The position numbers and the translations under genes were made by a program. Source: an uncultured Erysipelotrichaceae bacterium (GTDB lineage Bacteria; Bacillota_I; Bacilli_A; Erysipelotrichales; Erysipelotrichaceae). Taken from it: DNA of 5,681 nucleotides. Below the pieces are notes generated by a model. The model was not told where the DNA came from. It searched no databases and saw only the letters and a list, made by a program, of their open reading frames with translations. Location of the stretch: assembly GCA_964457525.1 (NCBI GenBank), contig CAYWGS010000099.1:1-5681 (forward strand), in the 5' to 3' direction. Shown here one piece after another: positions 1 through 5,681 of the stretch; the stretch's first letter is position 1, and every line of letters begins with the position of its first letter.

Positions 1-12
1 CCCGAAGGCTTC
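1..12 (-). terminator. Possible 5' half of a terminator hairpin immediately after the stop codon, truncated by the window edge.
   Basis: The minus strand after the TAA reads GAAGCC-UUCG-GG, then the window ends. This would fit a GAAGCC/GGCUUC stem with a UUCG tetraloop. The 3' arm and any U-tract lie outside the window. Confidence 0.25.
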
Positions 13-3000
13 TTATAAGCGAATAAGTGTTTCGAACGAATCATCGATTCCTTCTGGGATTGTGACTGAATGAACAATTTGCCCATTTAATTGGAAGTTA
101 ACTGTTACAGCGCCACAATGTTTTGCTAAACGTTTATAGAATTCAACTTGGATTGTTTGAAGGTTGACCATGTCTTTATCATTCAATTCTACCAACATTG
201 TCTTTTCATCTGGTTTAGCTAAACGTCTGCGAATTACTTTTTGGTTATTTGATCCATCTGTTAAGGTGTATTTCATGTTAGGTCTTAAGAAGGCAAGTAA
301 CCAAGCAAGGATACCAGCTAGTGCTGCAATTAACCATGAGAACCAGTCAAATGGTAATGCGACTAGAGGTGTTTCTTCTTCTGGAACTACGATGATTTCT
401 TCTTCAGAAACATTGATTGTGTAAGTACCCGTATTCGAATCATCCGTACCATCGTTTGCGATGAATGTGAAGCTATCACTACCATTGAATCCATCATTTG
501 GAGTATAGGTAAAGCTTCCATCAGGATTGAATACGATTGTACCATTGTTAGGGCCATCTATTAAACTATAAGTTAATGCATCTCCATCCGCATCGCTACC
601 AGATACTGCTCCAGTAATTGGAGATTCGAATCCAGTAGTACTTGTTCCATTAATTACAACTGGAGGAGTATTTCCTGCAGGAGGTGGAGGCGTTGGTAAA
701 CCAATAATTGTGATTGTTACGAGGGCATTCGATGTACTTGTTCCATCAAATACTTCAAATAAGAAACTATCACTGACACTTGGTCCACCATTGTGTACAT
801 AGGTGAATGAACCATCTACAGCAAAGACTAAGCTACCATTTGCTGGACCGGTTAATAAGCTAAATACTAATGGGTCATTTTCTGGATCAGTAGCTGTTAC
901 GGTTCCGCCTAATGTACCACCAGTAAGAACTGTTAAAGCTTGTCCGATCGCAACTGGAGATTGATTAATAACTGGAGCAGCTAATACTGTGATTGTAACA
1001 GTTGCGGTAGATGTTAATTGACCATCTGTAACACTGAATACAAAGGAATCACTAAGTGTAGCTGAACCATTGTGTGTATAAACATATCCACCAGTTGGAC
1101 TAATAGTAACACTACCATTAGTTGCAGGAGTTAATAAACTAAAGGTTAAGGCATCCGCTGGAACATCGATATCAGAAGCAGTTACGCTACCTGTACTTGT
1201 ACCAGCATTAACAACTGTGAAGGCTAATGGATTTGCTACAGGAGCATCGTTGACAGGCGTAACTTCAATGACTACAGTCACGATGTTTGAATCCAATACA
1301 CCATCATTAACATAGTAATCAAAGGAGTCAGTACCAACAAAGTTCAAGTTAGGTGTGTATGTAAATGAACCATCTACACCAAGAATTAATGAACCATTCG
1401 TTGTATCTTTATCAAGAATGACTGTTGTTGCATCCCCATCGTTATCACCATCGTTATACATGATACCTGGAGCAGGAATGATTAATGTTGTATCTTCAAC
1501 GGTTGAGTAACCATCGCCAAGTGCATATGGTGCATCATTTTGAGGAATGATATTAATTGTAACGACTGCTAATGCACTACCATTTAGTAAATCTCTTACT
1601 CGGTAGATAAATGTATCAGTTCCTGTAGCATTCAAATTAGGAGTATAAGTAAATGTACCATTGAGGTTGAGATTTACTGTACCCTTAGTTGGTTCTCCTC
1701 CTGGGAGGAGTGTAGCAAATAGAACTATACTATCTACATCTGAATCATTAGCTAATACGCCAAGACTATACGAATTAATTGTTAAAGTCTGATCTTCATT
1801 TGTAGAATAAACATCATCAACAGCAACTGGATTATCATTAACTGGTTTTACAAGAATACCAACTGTTGCTGTATCACTACCGCCCTTACCATCACTAATT
1901 GTATAAGTAAAGCTTGCGAGTCCAAAGAAATTAGGTACTGGTAAGTATGTAAATTGATTACCTACTAGAGTTAATAATCCAGAACTTGGTTGTGTAAATC
2001 CAGTGATGGTTAACGCATCATAATCTGGATCAGAATCATTGTCGAGTAAATCTTCTATTGTGAATAATAATATATTGTCTTCATTAATAGAGAAACCATC
2101 ATTGTCTGCATCTGGTTTATCATTTACTGAAGCAACATTAATCGTTACTGTTGCAGTTGAGTATGCACCAAACGAATCAGTTACTTTGTATGTAAATGTA
2201 TCGGTACCAAAGAAATTAAGATTTGGACGATATCTAAATGAACCATTTGCATTAAAGTATACGAGTACACCATGCGAAGGGTTTGTTAACTTTGTTGCGG
2301 TTAATGGATTGTTTTCAGGGTCTGAATCATTACTTAAGACACCTGAAGCTGCATTAATCGTAATAACTGTATCTTCATTTGTGTTATAACTATCATCAAC
2401 TGCTACTGGAGCATCATTGACTGATGTGACTGTTATGGTTACCGTCGCTTGATTAGAATCACTTGTACCATCATTGATATGATACTTAAATGTATCTGTA
2501 CCATTGAATCCAGGATTTGGAATATAATCGAAGGATCCATCTGGGTTAAGCGTTAACATACCATTTGTTACATTAACATCGAGCTCTAAGGATAAACTAT
2601 CACCATCATCATCAAAGTCATTGTTCAATACACCAAGAAGTGCATTGACATTGAGTGTCGTATCTTCATTTGTTGAATAATTATCATCTACAGCAACTGG
2701 TACATCATTAGCAGCATTCACTGTAATCGTAACGGTCGCAATATTTGAATCTAATGCACCATCATTCGCATGATAAGTGAAACTATCGGTTCCATTGAAA
2801 TCAGCATCTGGTGTATATGTGAAAGATCCGTCTGGGTTAAGTACTAATGTACCATCACTAACATCGGTATCGAGAACAGCAGTAATTGTATCGCCATCCA
2901 AATCAGTATCATTACCTAAAACCCCTGGCAATAATTCATTAATAGTTCCATCTTCATCAATTGAATAGTTATCATTGACTGCGACTGGTGCGTCATTAAC

Positions 3001-5172
3001 AGCATTCGCTGTAATCGTTACAGTTGCTTGGTTGGAATCCTTATCACCATCATTTACATGATACTTAAATGTATCTGTACCATGGAAGTTCGTATTTGGA
3101 ACATAAGTGAAGGATCCATCTGGGTTAAGTGTTAACGTACCGTTAGATACATTAACATCTAAAGCTAAGGATAAAGTATCACCTTCATCATCAGAGTCGT
3201 TGTTCAATACACCAAGAAGTGCATTGACATTGAGTGTTGTATCTTCATTTGTTGAATAAGTATCATTTACTGCAACTGGTGCATCATTGACTGGTAATAT
3301 ATCAATAAGCACGATAACAGTAATCGATTCTGTGTGAGAATCTGTTACCTTATAGGTAAATGAATCAAATCCAACATAATCTGGATTAGGTGAATAAATA
3401 AATGAACCATCTCCAAAGAATGAGAGAGTACCATTGGTTGTTGCATTTACGAGTATTGCAGTTAATGGATCTCCATCGTTATCAAAATCATTTAATAACA
3501 CACCTGGCAAGATACCTAATAATACGGTGTCTTCATATCCTGTATATGCATCCGCAACAGCAACTGGGGCATCATTTACCGAGTTAACTATAATTGTTAC
3601 TGTTACGATACTTGAGCTACCATAACCATCATGAACAAAATATTTAAATGTATCTGTGCCATGGAAGTTAGGATTTGGTATATAAACGAATGATCCATCT
3701 GGGTTAAGCGTCAACATACCATTTGCTACATTAGTATCTAATATAGCAGTTAATGGATCACCATCTATATCTGAATCATTATGTAACACACCTAGCGTTG
3801 AATTAACATTAAGTGTTACATCTTCGTCAGTTGTATAAATATCATCATGAGCTACAGGAGCATCTTTCACTTCTCTAACAGTGATGGATACTAGAGCTGT
3901 ATCTCCTCCATTGATTGTATAAATAAAACTATCATTACCAAAGAAGTTTGGTGTTGGAATATATTTTAGTGTTCCATCATGATTATCTGTAACAGCACCA
4001 TGACCTGGTTGAGTAAAGCCTGTAATCGTAATTGGATCACCATCAACATCCACATCATTCCCTAATACGCTTATATTTATCGGTTGATCTTCATTTGTTG
4101 ATTCAACATCATCATTAGCGATTGGTAAATCATCCTTCGCAACCACTTGGATAGTGATTGTTCCTGGTAAAGAATATTCAAATCCATCAAATACTTTAAA
4201 TGTAAATGAATCAGATCCATTAAAATTTGGATCAGGTGTATAGATTAGATTAGGAGCAGTTCCACTTATTGAACCATGAGATGGTGTTCCTACATCTGAA
4301 AAGCTAAGCACATGACCGTCCGCATCCGATCCACTTAAAACAATATTCAATGCAGTATCTTCATTTGTAGTTAATGATTGATCAATTGCGACTGGTCTTG
4401 CATTTAGGGTTGTTACAGTCACAGTAGCGGAATCAGTAATACCAAGATAATCACCTGTTGCAGTATTATTCACGGTATGTACTCCAGCCACACTACCTGA
4501 TTGAATTGATCGAGTATAGGTTACAGAACCTGTATTTGTAAAGGTCCATGGACCTACTCCAACAAATGAATCAGTAACGATTAAAGAACCATTATTAGTT
4601 GTTGGTGTTCCTAAGTCTGTAACAGATGGTGATTTACCTTCATAAACATCGGATCCTAGAATTGGATTTAAACGAATGTTTACTTTCAATGGTAATAAAC
4701 CACTTGGTAAAGGACCATTAGTAGAATATAATAATTGATACGTCTTTGTGAGTGTCTGATTTTTATCAATAACGACACCCGTTTCAACAGTAGTCCAATC
4801 AATGATTGGGGAGCCACTAGGCTTTACAATCTTGGCATCCACATCAAATGTTGTACCCCAATGATCACTATCATTCGTAATTTTGACCTCAAATTCAAAA
4901 GTCAAGCTATGACTCTCTGATTTAGTCGCTGTGATAGTATAAGTAACATTTTGGCTTGTGCCAATTGGCAAACTTAAAGTAGGTTTATTAACCGATTTAT
5001 CAATTGCCCAAGTATTATCAATATGATAATCCCCTGTTACTTGAAATTTATTAATCTTTATATTTAAATCTGCATATGTGGCATTTACTAAAACACCTAA
5101 ATTTGGCGTTCGATCAACAAGTAGTAGCAACATTAAACCTATCCTTGCCAATCGGTTGAGTAAGTTCTTCAT
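13..5172 (-). CDS. Giant surface protein (1,719 aa) with 14 tandem ~95-aa cadherin-like / VCBS-type ('tandem-95') repeats. Putative Ca2+-dependent adhesin anchored by a C-terminal TM helix.
   Basis: Uninterrupted 1,719-codon ORF. The ATG at 5172..5170 lies 6 nt downstream of GGGAGGG, and the TAA stop is at 15..13. The translation is periodic, with repeat consensus VNDAPVAxDDxYxTxEDxxLxV..GVLxNDxDxDGDxLT......NGTLxLNPDGSFTYTPNxNFxGTDxFTYxxxDGxxxSNxATVTITV. This is typical of bacterial cadherin-like/VCBS tandem-repeat adhesins. The adhesin function is inferred from architecture only. Confidence 0.9.
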   Translation of the reverse strand: MKNLLNRLARIGLMLLLLVDRTPNLGVLVNATYADLNIKINKFQVTGDYHIDNTWAIDKSVNKPTLSLPIGTSQNVTYTITATKSESHSLTFEFEVKITNDSDHWGTTFDVDAKIVKPSGSPIIDWTTVETGVVIDKNQTLTKTYQLLYSTNGPLPSGLLPLKVNIRLNPILGSDVYEGKSPSVTDLGTPTTNNGSLIVTDSFVGVGPWTFTNTGSVTYTRSIQSGSVAGVHTVNNTATGDYLGITDSATVTVTTLNARPVAIDQSLTTNEDTALNIVLSGSDADGHVLSFSDVGTPSHGSISGTAPNLIYTPDPNFNGSDSFTFKVFDGFEYSLPGTITIQVVAKDDLPIANDDVESTNEDQPINISVLGNDVDVDGDPITITGFTQPGHGAVTDNHDGTLKYIPTPNFFGNDSFIYTINGGDTALVSITVREVKDAPVAHDDIYTTDEDVTLNVNSTLGVLHNDSDIDGDPLTAILDTNVANGMLTLNPDGSFVYIPNPNFHGTDTFKYFVHDGYGSSSIVTVTIIVNSVNDAPVAVADAYTGYEDTVLLGILPGVLLNDFDNDGDPLTAILVNATTNGTLSFFGDGSFIYSPNPDYVGFDSFTYKVTDSHTESITVIVLIDILPVNDAPVAVNDTYSTNEDTTLNVNALLGVLNNDSDDEGDTLSLALDVNVSNGTLTLNPDGSFTYVPNTNFHGTDTFKYHVNDGDKDSNQATVTITANAVNDAPVAVNDNYSIDEDGTINELLPGVLGNDTDLDGDTITAVLDTDVSDGTLVLNPDGSFTYTPDADFNGTDSFTYHANDGALDSNIATVTITVNAANDVPVAVDDNYSTNEDTTLNVNALLGVLNNDFDDDGDSLSLELDVNVTNGMLTLNPDGSFDYIPNPGFNGTDTFKYHINDGTSDSNQATVTITVTSVNDAPVAVDDSYNTNEDTVITINAASGVLSNDSDPENNPLTATKLTNPSHGVLVYFNANGSFRYRPNLNFFGTDTFTYKVTDSFGAYSTATVTINVASVNDKPDADNDGFSINEDNILLFTIEDLLDNDSDPDYDALTITGFTQPSSGLLTLVGNQFTYLPVPNFFGLASFTYTISDGKGGSDTATVGILVKPVNDNPVAVDDVYSTNEDQTLTINSYSLGVLANDSDVDSIVLFATLLPGGEPTKGTVNLNLNGTFTYTPNLNATGTDTFIYRVRDLLNGSALAVVTINIIPQNDAPYALGDGYSTVEDTTLIIPAPGIMYNDGDNDGDATTVILDKDTTNGSLILGVDGSFTYTPNLNFVGTDSFDYYVNDGVLDSNIVTVVIEVTPVNDAPVANPLAFTVVNAGTSTGSVTASDIDVPADALTFSLLTPATNGSVTISPTGGYVYTHNGSATLSDSFVFSVTDGQLTSTATVTITVLAAPVINQSPVAIGQALTVLTGGTLGGTVTATDPENDPLVFSLLTGPANGSLVFAVDGSFTYVHNGGPSVSDSFLFEVFDGTSTSNALVTITIIGLPTPPPPAGNTPPVVINGTSTTGFESPITGAVSGSDADGDALTYSLIDGPNNGTIVFNPDGSFTYTPNDGFNGSDSFTFIANDGTDDSNTGTYTINVSEEEIIVVPEEETPLVALPFDWFSWLIAALAGILAWLLAFLRPNMKYTLTDGSNNQKVIRRRLAKPDEKTMLVELNDKDMVNLQTIQVEFYKRLAKHCGAVTVNFQLNGQIVHSVTIPEGIDDSFETLIRL
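16..285 (-). other. 90-aa predicted cytoplasmic C-terminal domain of unknown function.
   Basis: Sequence is RPNMKYTLTDGSNNQKVIRRRLAKPDEKTMLVELNDKDMVNLQTIQVEFYKRLAKHCGAVTVNFQLNGQIVHSVTIPEGIDDSFETLIRL. The composition is non-repetitive and mixed charged/hydrophobic, consistent with a small folded alpha/beta domain. It lies after the only TM helix of a signal-bearing protein, so cytoplasmic topology is inferred. Confidence 0.5.
286..366 (-). other. Single C-terminal transmembrane helix (membrane anchor).
   Basis: Residues 1603-1629 are LVALPFDWFSWLIAALAGILAWLLAFL, with a ~20-residue uncharged hydrophobic core. It is preceded by the acidic stalk SEEEIIVVPEEETP. It is followed by a basic stretch, RPNMK and then RRRLAK about 15 residues further on, consistent with the positive-inside rule. 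Confidence 0.75.
397..4401 (-). repeat. Array of 14 in-frame tandem coding repeats (89-100 aa each, mean ~95 aa).
   Basis: Hand-delimited units (nt): R1 4129-4401, R2 3862-4128, R3 3571-3861, R4 3283-3570, R5 2992-3282, R6 2704-2991, R7 2413-2703, R8 2119-2412, R9 1834-2118, R10 1534-1833, R11 1246-1533, R12 961-1245, R13 670-960, R14 397-669. R2-R11 share the (V)NDAPVAxDD...NEDxxL...ND(S/T/F)DxDGD...NPDGSFxYxPNxNFxGTDxFxY core. R1 and R12-R14 form a second class (xGxVxxSDxDGDxLxFSL...GSxxxxxDGSFTYxxN...SDSFxFxxxDG). A Pro-rich hinge GLPTPPPPAGNTPP (661-702) separates R13 from R14. Confidence 0.85.
4402..5070 (-). other. Non-repeat N-terminal head region (~residues 35-257). Beta-rich, function unknown, candidate ligand-binding tip.
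   Basis: Shows alternating polar/hydrophobic T/V/S-rich strands (e.g. NVTYTITATKSESHSLTFEFEVKITN, GSVTYTRSIQSG, DSATVTVTT). It lacks the NDxDxDGD/NPDGSFTY signature of the downstream repeats. I recognise no family motif. Confidence 0.4.
5071..5172 (-). other. N-terminal signal-like sequence (residues 1-34). Cleavage site is uncertain.
   Basis: Sequence is MKNLLNRLARIGLMLLLLVDRTPNLGVLVNATYA|DLN. It has a basic n-region (K2, R7, R10), a hydrophobic core IGLMLLLLV and a possible A-x-A-like site at T-Y-A. The hydrophobic core is short and is followed by D-R, so the type and cleavage position are not secure. Confidence 0.5.
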
Positions 5173-5178
5173 ATAATA

Positions 5179-5185
5179 CCCTCCC
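5179..5185 (-). promoter_or_regulatory. Shine-Dalgarno sequence (GGGAGGG) of the giant gene.
   Basis: The minus strand reads AAAGAAAGGGAGGGUAUUAUAUG. GGGAGGG sits 6 nt upstream of the ATG, a strong Bacillota-type ribosome binding site. Confidence 0.85.
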
Positions 5186-5192
5186 TTTCTTT

Positions 5193-5229
5193 AAAAAAAC
5201 CGGACTATTGCATAGTGCAATTGACCGGT
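5193..5229 (-). terminator. Intrinsic terminator, expression platform of the proximal riboswitch unit.
   Basis: The minus-strand RNA is ACCGGUCAAUUGCA-CUA-UGCAAUAGUCCGGU followed by a U7 run. The outer stem is ACCGG/CCGGU (5 bp) and the inner stem is AUUGCA/UGCAAU (6 bp), with two internal mismatches around one central C-G pair. The U-tract is 5199..5193 and ends ~7 nt before the SD. Confidence 0.8.
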
Positions 5230-5297
5230 CATGATATCCAGAGATATTTTAGACGTCGAACTTTGTGTCCTAAGCTTTCACTTAGTTTACCTTTATA
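5214..5297 (-). promoter_or_regulatory. Cyclic-di-GMP class I (GEMM-I) riboswitch aptamer, proximal unit (boundaries approximate).
   Basis: The minus strand 5291..5221 reads GGUAAAC UAAGU GAAA GCUUAG GAC ACAAAG UUCGACGUC UAAAAUAUC UCUG GAUAUCAUGAC CGGUCAA. It shows the GGYAAAC box, a hairpin capped by a GAAA tetraloop and the ACRCAAAG junction. A second hairpin has a UCUAAA/CAUGA internal loop resembling a tetraloop receptor. The first 33 nt are collinear, without gaps, with the Vibrio cholerae Vc2 aptamer as I recall it. Confidence 0.75.
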
Positions 5298-5336
5298 CTA
5301 CGATATAGTTGTGAATCTGCAGTAGCTTTATAAGAC

Positions 5337-5374
5337 AAAAACCGGTCTACCGCAGAAATTTGCAGTTGACCGGT
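5337..5374 (-). terminator. Intrinsic terminator, expression platform of the distal riboswitch unit.
   Basis: The minus-strand RNA is ACCGGUC-AA-CUGCA-AAUUUC-UGCGG-UA-GACCGGU followed by UUUU. The outer stem is 7 bp. The inner stem is 5 bp and includes one G.U wobble that exists only in the minus-strand transcript. The U-run is 5 nt (5341..5337), shorter than in the proximal unit. Confidence 0.7.
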
Positions 5375-5442
5375 CATGATATCCATCGATACTTTAGACG
5401 TCGAACTTTGTGCCCCAAGCTTTCACTTGGTTTACCTATATT
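5359..5442 (-). promoter_or_regulatory. Cyclic-di-GMP class I (GEMM-I) riboswitch aptamer, distal unit (boundaries approximate).
   Basis: The minus strand 5436..5366 reads GGUAAAC CAAGU GAAA GCUUGG GGC ACAAAG UUCGACGUC UAAAGUAUC GAUG GAUAUCAUGAC CGGUCAA. It has the same motif order as the proximal unit, offset by exactly 145 nt. Confidence 0.75.
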
Positions 5443-5500
5443 GAGACTAAAAATCTACTCAAAATCAATACACAATTATCGTGTTATTCTATGTACCCAT

Positions 5501-5529
5501 ATAATAAACCTTGAAAATCGGACTTGCAA
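5501..5529 (-). promoter_or_regulatory. Candidate sigma-A-type promoter a (TTGCAA-17 nt-TATTAT).
   Basis: The minus strand reads TTGCAA GTCCGATTTTCAAGGTT TATTAT. The -35 is 5529..5524 and the -10 is 5506..5501, which implies a start near 5494, ~50 nt upstream of the distal aptamer. Such matches are common by chance in AT-rich DNA. Confidence 0.3.
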
Positions 5530-5577
5530 CACTTATACACTTGATTTTAGACTTTTTTACGTACTACTACATATGTT

Positions 5578-5605
5578 TTTATAATATGTCATAAATAGTA
5601 GTCAA
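5578..5605 (-). promoter_or_regulatory. Candidate sigma-A-type promoter b (TTGACT-16 nt-TATAAA).
   Basis: The minus strand reads TTGACT ACTATTTATGACATAT TATAAA. The -35 is 5605..5600 and the -10 is 5583..5578, which implies a start near 5571. It is an alternative to candidate a, and the sequence alone cannot discriminate between them. Confidence 0.3.
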
Positions 5606-5681
5606 ATTACACTAAAATACTATGTTTAATGATTATTTTAATTTCAAAATTATAAAAAAATGGATGTTTCTTTTTAAATTT

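Follow-up and report, generated by a model that had tools for sequence, protein, structure and literature searches.

Tandem c-di-GMP-I riboswitch units with individual terminators in the leader of a gene for a large adhesin in an uncultured Erysipelotrichaceae bacterium

The leader of a gene for a large cadherin-repeat surface protein in an uncultured Erysipelotrichaceae bacterium contains two c-di-GMP-I riboswitch units in tandem, each comprised of an aptamer and an intrinsic terminator. The two units are very probably independent ON switches that act in series on transcription and respond to c-di-GMP. The gene and its leader are located on the minus strand of a stretch of 5,681 nucleotides, referred to here as the window (assembly GCA_964457525.1, contig CAYWGS010000099.1, positions 1 to 5,681). 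The coordinates of the features are collected in Table 1.

Table 1. Features of the adhesin locus in the window
Feature	Position	Strand	Basis
Unit 1 aptamer, c-di-GMP-I (RF01051)	5358..5446	minus	62.3 bits, E 7.4e-11, model 1-87 of 87
Unit 2 aptamer, c-di-GMP-I (RF01051)	5213..5301	minus	63.1 bits, E 4.9e-11, model 1-87 of 87
Unit 1 intrinsic terminator	5332..5374	minus	hairpin -19.2 kcal/mol, fold z-score -5.1
Unit 2 intrinsic terminator	5193..5229	minus	hairpin -12.6 kcal/mol, folding
Spacer segment CUACUGCAGA	5316..5325	minus	complementary to 5356..5347 (terminator 1 3' arm)
Candidate sigma-A promoter, TTGCAA, 17-nt spacer, TATTAT	5501..5529	minus	consensus scan
Ribosome-binding site GGGAGGG	5179..5185	minus	read from sequence; invariant in relatives
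Regulated gene, surface protein of 1719 aa	13..5172	minus	ORF call and translation

The whole window was compared with the 4227 families of Rfam 15 by cmscan. Two non-overlapping matches to RF01051 exceeded the gathering score of this family, which is 35, and no other family scored above its gathering score anywhere in the window. An earlier note on this DNA had predicted the two RF01051 matches, with class II (RF01786) as the control, and the cores of the two units that it had proposed (5436..5366 and 5291..5221) are located inside the two matches. A permissive scan of 5100..5681 with E up to 10 also gave zero matches to RF01786. Its sole additional match was a chance-level one to CRISPR-DR47. 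On this segment, canonical RF01051 also outscored the GGC and UAU variant models of its clan. The unit starts are exactly 145 nt apart, as had been claimed, and over a core of 81 nt the copies show 90% identity. The Rfam consensus aligns with every motif that had been listed: the GGUAAAC box, the 6-bp hairpin with its GAAA loop, ACACAAAG at the junction and UCUAAA/CAUGA as the receptor-like loop. The family is recognised by a GNRA loop on hairpin 1 and a receptor loop on hairpin 2. Both units have the GAAA loop, and in the alignment UCUAAA/CAUGA matches the consensus CUAA/AuGa; in unit 1 the GAAA-tetraloop hairpin spans 5431..5415 and the receptor hairpin is also present. Both elements are almost certainly c-di-GMP-I aptamers.

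The structure of the aptamer was further examined in a set of 20 related units taken from the window and from the related loci L001 and L003-L012. When the Rfam structure was counted on their alignment, 97.4% of the cells were standard pairs and 10 of the 23 pairs were changed on both sides. Sliding the 3' partners by 1-3 columns reduced the paired fraction to at most 38.5%. The high pairing, the compensatory changes and the low values of the slid controls indicate that the structure is supported by variation inside the lineage, beyond resemblance to the model. The C->U and G->A differences from Vc2, which had been suspected of pairing with each other, correspond to columns 13 and 37. These columns hold U-A in 18 of the 19 distinct relatives, in place of the C-G pair of the junction-closing helix, which has two pairs, and the suspicion was thus well founded.

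The two units differ in the junction and in the closing helix. Unit 1 has GGC at 5412-5414, where the highly conserved consensus is GAC, and unit 2 has GAC. Both junction variants recur in the relatives, in either position of the array. By inspection, unit 2 has a candidate closing helix of 4 bp between UAGU (5300..5297) and ACUA (5216..5213), which is conserved and invariant. Unit 1 of the window has UCUC at the corresponding site (5437-5446), with no obvious partner by inspection. A 4-bp closing helix of unit 1 is possible in L001, L005, L006 and L016, where it is formed by AUUU/AAAU or GUUU/AAAC in a compensatory manner.

The alignment to the consensus also locates the positions that are expected to contact the ligand. 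G5436 of unit 1 and G5291 of unit 2 lie just 5' of the junction helix, A5409 and A5264 lie just 3' of it, and C5362 and C5217 are found two nucleotides past the receptor hairpin. We take these residues to be the equivalents of the ligand contacts G20, A47 and C92 of Vc2. It is improbable that one or both aptamers sense another cyclic dinucleotide, such as 3',3'-cGAMP, and the evidence on this point is as follows. The identity of the first contact position (G20) is a signature of the ligand, G standing for c-di-GMP and A for cGAMP (PMC9481103; PMC9262584). GEMM-I variants that bind cGAMP are nevertheless almost indistinguishable by sequence, G20 being a selectivity factor and not a hard filter (PMC9262584), and the junction of unit 1 deviates from the consensus. 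However, all three contacts are kept as G, A and C in both units, the canonical model is the top-scoring one within its clan, and an adhesin is a typical cargo for c-di-GMP. The A at position 20 that marks the cGAMP-binding GEMM-Ib group is replaced by G in both units of the window. Among the loci collected here, A at this position was seen only in the first unit (54.6 bits) of L014, an array of three units unrelated to that of the window, in which units 2 and 3 have G; L014 could therefore be a mixed-ligand array, judging from this signature.

Downstream of each aptamer lie a separate hairpin and U tract. Terminator 1 consists of the 5' arm ACCGGUCAACUGCA (5374..5361), a loop at 5360..5355 and the 3' arm UGCGGUAGACCGGU (5354..5341), and is followed by UUUUUGUCUU. 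Terminator 2 consists of the 5' arm ACCGGUCAAUUGCA (5229..5216), the loop CUA and the 3' arm UGCAAUAGUCCGGU (5212..5199), and ends in seven U residues (5199..5193). Both hairpins were found by explicit folding. A simple terminator scanner reported 0 sites, presumably due to the internal mismatches in the terminator stems. Since a hairpin and a U tract follow each aptamer, the two units are complete riboswitches, and each aptamer has its own expression platform within the same 5' UTR, the arrangement by which tandem complete riboswitches are defined. The earlier note had described the copies in the same way, as distinct from a cooperative two-aptamer unit, and the folding agrees with it. Two homologous aptamers in a single leader are also what a cooperative pair of the glycine type would display, in which two aptamers share one expression platform. 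Such a pair has practically no probability here and is refuted by the anatomy of the leader: within the 145-nt offset a complete terminator separates the aptamers, and neither of them lacks a hairpin and a U tract.

The 5' arms of the terminators share 9 nt (unit 1) and 8 nt (unit 2) with the 3' strand of the receptor hairpin, and in addition the equivalent of C92. Because of these shared nucleotides, only one of the two structures, aptamer or terminator, can exist at a time, as in the design of an ON switch. The overlap was present in all 18 of the doublet units examined. Imposing the receptor hairpin costs 9-11 kcal/mol relative to the free fold, in which the terminator is present, according to energy models that take no account of the ligand, of tertiary contacts or of co-transcriptional kinetics. 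In seven close relatives, 92.9% of the cells of terminator 1 are paired. The aptamer strand is invariant in these seven sequences, and the terminator 3' arm varies (UAGACC, UUGUCC, UGGGCC) yet stays complementary to it, as would be expected if the terminator were under selection. Both strands of the receptor hairpin are palindromic, namely UGACCGGUCA (5222-5231 and 5367-5376) and GACGUC (5251-5256 and 5396-5401). Due to these palindromes, the 3' strand of the aptamer recurs in the terminator 3' arm as GACCGGU, and units 1 and 2 are complementary to each other in this region.

Experiments established a mutually exclusive design of this kind as an ON switch in Bc2 (PMC4933901). In Bc3-5 the design was predicted in the same terms and the ON direction was shown by reporters (PMC4759541), and the cGAMP switch of pilM has been likewise described as having a mutually exclusive aptamer and terminator (PMC9262584). 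OFF switches are also known among the c-di-GMP-I riboswitches, for instance Cd1 (PMC9262584). Only 7 nt separate the end of the unit 2 U tract from the ribosome-binding site, and in the minimum-energy folds a freed 5' strand of the aptamer, AAGUUC, pairs with codons 2-4 (GAACUU), both of which would fit an action of one unit on translation instead of transcription. An OFF design, however, requires a terminator that is compatible with the aptamer, whereas the 8-9 nt shared here lead to mutual exclusion, and the AAGUUC/GAACUU pairing is lost in L017 and absent from the other lineages. That the units are OFF switches, or that one of them regulates translation, has a very small probability. The loss in L017 rules out the AAGUUC/GAACUU pairing as a general mechanism. 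Another complementarity between the leader and the coding region, repeat I3 (5462..5449 with 5169..5156), is not conserved in the relatives and was attributed to chance.

A single promoter candidate is found upstream of the array, about 55 nt from unit 1, and there is no gene between units 1 and 2. The hexamers of the promoter are invariant and its spacer is variable in the window, L001, L005, L006 and L007. The predicted transcription start is near 5494, which gives a predicted leader of about 320 nt. Weak promoter-like hexamer pairs with 9 of 12 matches, for instance TCGACG-17-TATCAT, occur inside both aptamers and on both strands (5376-5404 and 5231-5259 on the minus strand; 5221-5250 and 5366-5393 on the plus strand). 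They are probably by-products of the conserved aptamer sequence. At the other end of the leader, the ribosome-binding site is separated by 6 nt from the ATG at 5172, and both follow directly after the second U tract.

Based on these findings, the leader is proposed to operate through two class I c-di-GMP riboswitches, each complete and independent of the other, that would act in series as ON switches of transcription. In both units, the receptor hairpin's 3' strand and the C that pairs with one guanine of the ligand would also serve as the 5' arm of the terminator. When c-di-GMP is absent, the terminator 3' arm would take this strand from the aptamer, the terminator hairpin with its U tract would form, and the polymerase would halt near 5335, behind unit 1, or near 5195, behind unit 2. 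When c-di-GMP is bound, the aptamer would keep the strand, the terminator would be blocked and the polymerase would read through. Full-length mRNA would result from read-through at both checkpoints, and the output would be approximately the product of the two occupancies. Compared with one switch, this should reduce leak and make the response to c-di-GMP steeper and more digital; a dose-response steeper and tighter than that of a single unit is expected by analogy with Bc3-5. The adhesin would thus be turned on at high c-di-GMP, in the sessile state. Points against this account are the G of unit 1 in place of the conserved A of the junction, the lack of an obvious closing helix for unit 1 in the window, and the fact that no gene for a c-di-GMP synthase or phosphodiesterase was seen within the 6 kb adjoining the near-identical locus L013.

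The independence of the units has to be weighed against a possible interaction through the spacer. Folding with aptamer 1 enforced produces a 10-bp helix between 5356..5347, in the terminator 1 3' arm, and 5325..5316, in the spacer, which can be formed in read-through transcripts only. The units may accordingly be coupled to, or insulated from, each other if the freed 3' arm of terminator 1 pairs either with the spacer or with unit 2, to whose homologous strand it is 79% complementary (repeat I4). In the window, L001, L005, L006 and L007, which are related loci, the duplex has z of -1.9 to -4.9 relative to shuffled spacers. In seven closely related sequences 89.7% of its cells are paired, as opposed to at most 44% in slid controls, and two pairs are changed on both sides. 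The potential helix is conserved in L016 and L017 as well. On the other hand, it is not significant relative to shuffled spacers in four other tandem lineages. The seven sequences are few and closely related, and the evidence for the helix is weak to moderate. When the spacer was shuffled in silico, terminator 2 was kept in 94-100% of the variants and cross-pairing occurred in 0-6%. Equilibrium modelling thus does not support the helix as an insulator of unit 2. The output of Bc3-5, moreover, is the product of independent units (PMC4759541).

Coupling or insulation of the two units is therefore unlikely, and it is equally unlikely that the helix is a selected inter-unit element which locks the strand complementary to unit 2. 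If it were such an element, the two near-identical switches would either be kept from mutual interference or be structurally coupled. To our knowledge, an arrangement of this kind has not been described as a design rule for tandem homologous ON riboswitches. A relay in which the spacer would pair with the 5' flank of unit 2 was also considered. The window would allow this pairing (GCUAC with GUAGU), L001, L005, L006 and L007 by inspection would not, and the relay was rejected. Two independent ON switches are the preferred reading.

The product of the regulated gene starts with a signal peptide, behind which lies an N-terminal domain of about 230 aa. It continues with 14 cadherin-like/Big_9 repeats and a single transmembrane helix, and its tail measures about 90 aa. 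Pfam matches were obtained to Big_9, Cadherin_4 and Cadherin_5, with 14 stretches each; the C-terminal tail has no Pfam match, and an LPXTG motif is absent from the protein. The gene had been called that of a giant adhesin. The protein is indeed a large adhesin, but its 1719 aa make it large rather than giant. Its N-terminal domain has just two homologs in a protein collection of 5.8 billion clusters, and a pattern scan for this domain in the GTDB species genomes returned zero relatives. An exact look-up of the whole protein gave no record, and a blastn comparison of the leader and the gene start with plasmids gave zero matches.

Relatives of the leader were collected with a degenerate aptamer pattern. 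The species-representative genomes yielded 10 stretches, most of them from Erysipelotrichaceae MAGs, and metagenomes yielded 5. L001, which was found via the N-terminal domain, encodes a protein 74% identical to that of the window and has the same two-unit leader, with 64 bits per unit. The differences specific to each unit are kept in L001, and the duplication therefore predates the split between the window and L001. The leader of L013 is identical to that of the window at 509 of 510 positions, which indicates the same organism or strain; the upstream neighbours of L013 are divergent genes without informative domains. Apart from the window, doublets are present in ten loci: L001, L003, L005, L006, L007, L008+L012 (adjacent chunks of one contig, counted as one locus), L009, L011, L016 and L017. 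L014 has a triplet of RF01051 units (1162-1542, minus strand) before a cadherin-repeat gene. The presence of the tandem layout in ten other loci and of one triplet shows that the duplication is old and has been maintained.

The number of units corresponds to the type of cargo. Wherever the gene downstream of a multiplet was readable, it encodes a cadherin-like repeat protein with a signal peptide. The single units of L004 (7018-7104), L010 (4273-4359) and L015 (7262-7348), the only singlets with this type of sequence, all precede small prepilin-like genes with the N-methylation motif; the hairpins that accompany these singlets are weak and AU-rich. Doublets and triplets before large cadherin-repeat proteins and singlets before pilins fit the use of tandem units for all-or-none decisions.

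Several further observations were made on the relatives. The promoter, the leader and the first 23 coding nucleotides (ATGAAGAACTTACTCAACCGATT) are common to genes that encode wholly different mature N-terminal domains. This shared segment (5149-5172 and 5172-5530 in the window) is found in L001, L005, L006, L007 and L016, and its synonymous sites are invariant too; L017 is an exception to the invariance of ATGAAGAACTTACTCAACCGATT. From these sequences, it looks like a cassette of regulatory region plus signal peptide that has been joined to different adhesin bodies. In L006 (845-1723), a leader near-identical to that of the window precedes an ORF of 293 aa with two cadherin-like repeats; this could be a truncated paralog, or else an artefact of the assembly. 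In another lineage (L003 3816-3908 and the junction of L008 1-90 with L012), the units are separated by a spacer with the Shine-Dalgarno-like AAAGGAGG, after which comes a mini-ORF of 4-7 codons that is not conserved, and a tRNA gene is located directly upstream of the array in L003 and L008/L012.

The finding holds up, its identification was correct and it makes biological sense, but it is ordinary, and the layout is a well-documented one. The earlier note had regarded tandem complete units as rare and the cargo as unusual, and neither view is upheld by the literature. For c-di-GMP-I riboswitches, a 2022 survey recorded 347 doublets and 12 triplets, more than in every other class, and ascribed this abundance to the binary lifestyle decisions that are under c-di-GMP control (Sherlock et al., PMC9481103). 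A 2025 survey found significant enrichment in contiguous arrangements for only three families; c-di-GMP is one of them, and its enrichment concerns complete riboswitches in tandem (PMC12452182). Genes for adhesins and surface proteins are what c-di-GMP ON switches classically control, as in Bc2-cap (PMC4933901), Bc3-5-cspABCDE (PMC4759541) and the c-di-GMP-II tandems (PMC9481103). No paper was found on c-di-GMP riboswitches in this Erysipelotrichaceae lineage.

Several characterized systems share parts of this layout. The 3',3'-cGAMP switch of Geobacter pilM (PMC9262584) has, like the window units, the GEMM-I fold and an aptamer and terminator that exclude each other, and it is an ON switch, the direction predicted for the window units. 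It is a single, cGAMP-specific unit, whereas the units of the window carry G at the equivalent of G20. In Paraclostridium, c-di-GMP-II riboswitches form doublets and triplets before COG4932 surface-anchor genes (PMC9481103), and thus also combine tandem units with large surface proteins in Bacillota; their aptamer class is non-homologous, and the window has no RF01786 match. The doublets and triplets of Sherlock et al. (PMC9481103) have the same class of architecture as the window units and are pseudo-cooperative tandem complete riboswitches for one ligand. Bc2, located before the gene of the collagen adhesion protein, cap, in B. thuringiensis (Tang et al. 2016, PMC4933901), likewise consists of a class I aptamer and an intrinsic terminator before an adhesin gene. 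It is a proven antitermination ON switch and a single unit, in contrast to the doublet of the window.

Bc3-5, located before cspABCDE in Bacillus thuringiensis (Zhou et al. 2016, PMC4759541), resembles the window in its near-identical complete c-di-GMP-I units with their own terminators. As in the window, the terminator is built from the aptamer's 3' portion (the binding-site C, P1 and part of P3), as is expected of an ON switch, and the cargo is likewise made up of surface proteins. Control by Bc3-5 is tighter and more digital than by a single unit. Bc3-5 has three units and is found in the B. cereus group, whereas the window has two and derives from an uncultured Erysipelotrichaceae bacterium. 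The cargo of Bc3-5 is an operon of wall-anchored proteins, that of the window one membrane-anchored protein with cadherin repeats. Bc3-5 has been studied experimentally, and the system of the window is known here from sequence analysis. Knowledge of the RNA class and of tandem architectures is unchanged by the locus, which adds to these systems a conserved example of what would be digital c-di-GMP control of adhesion in uncultured Erysipelotrichaceae.
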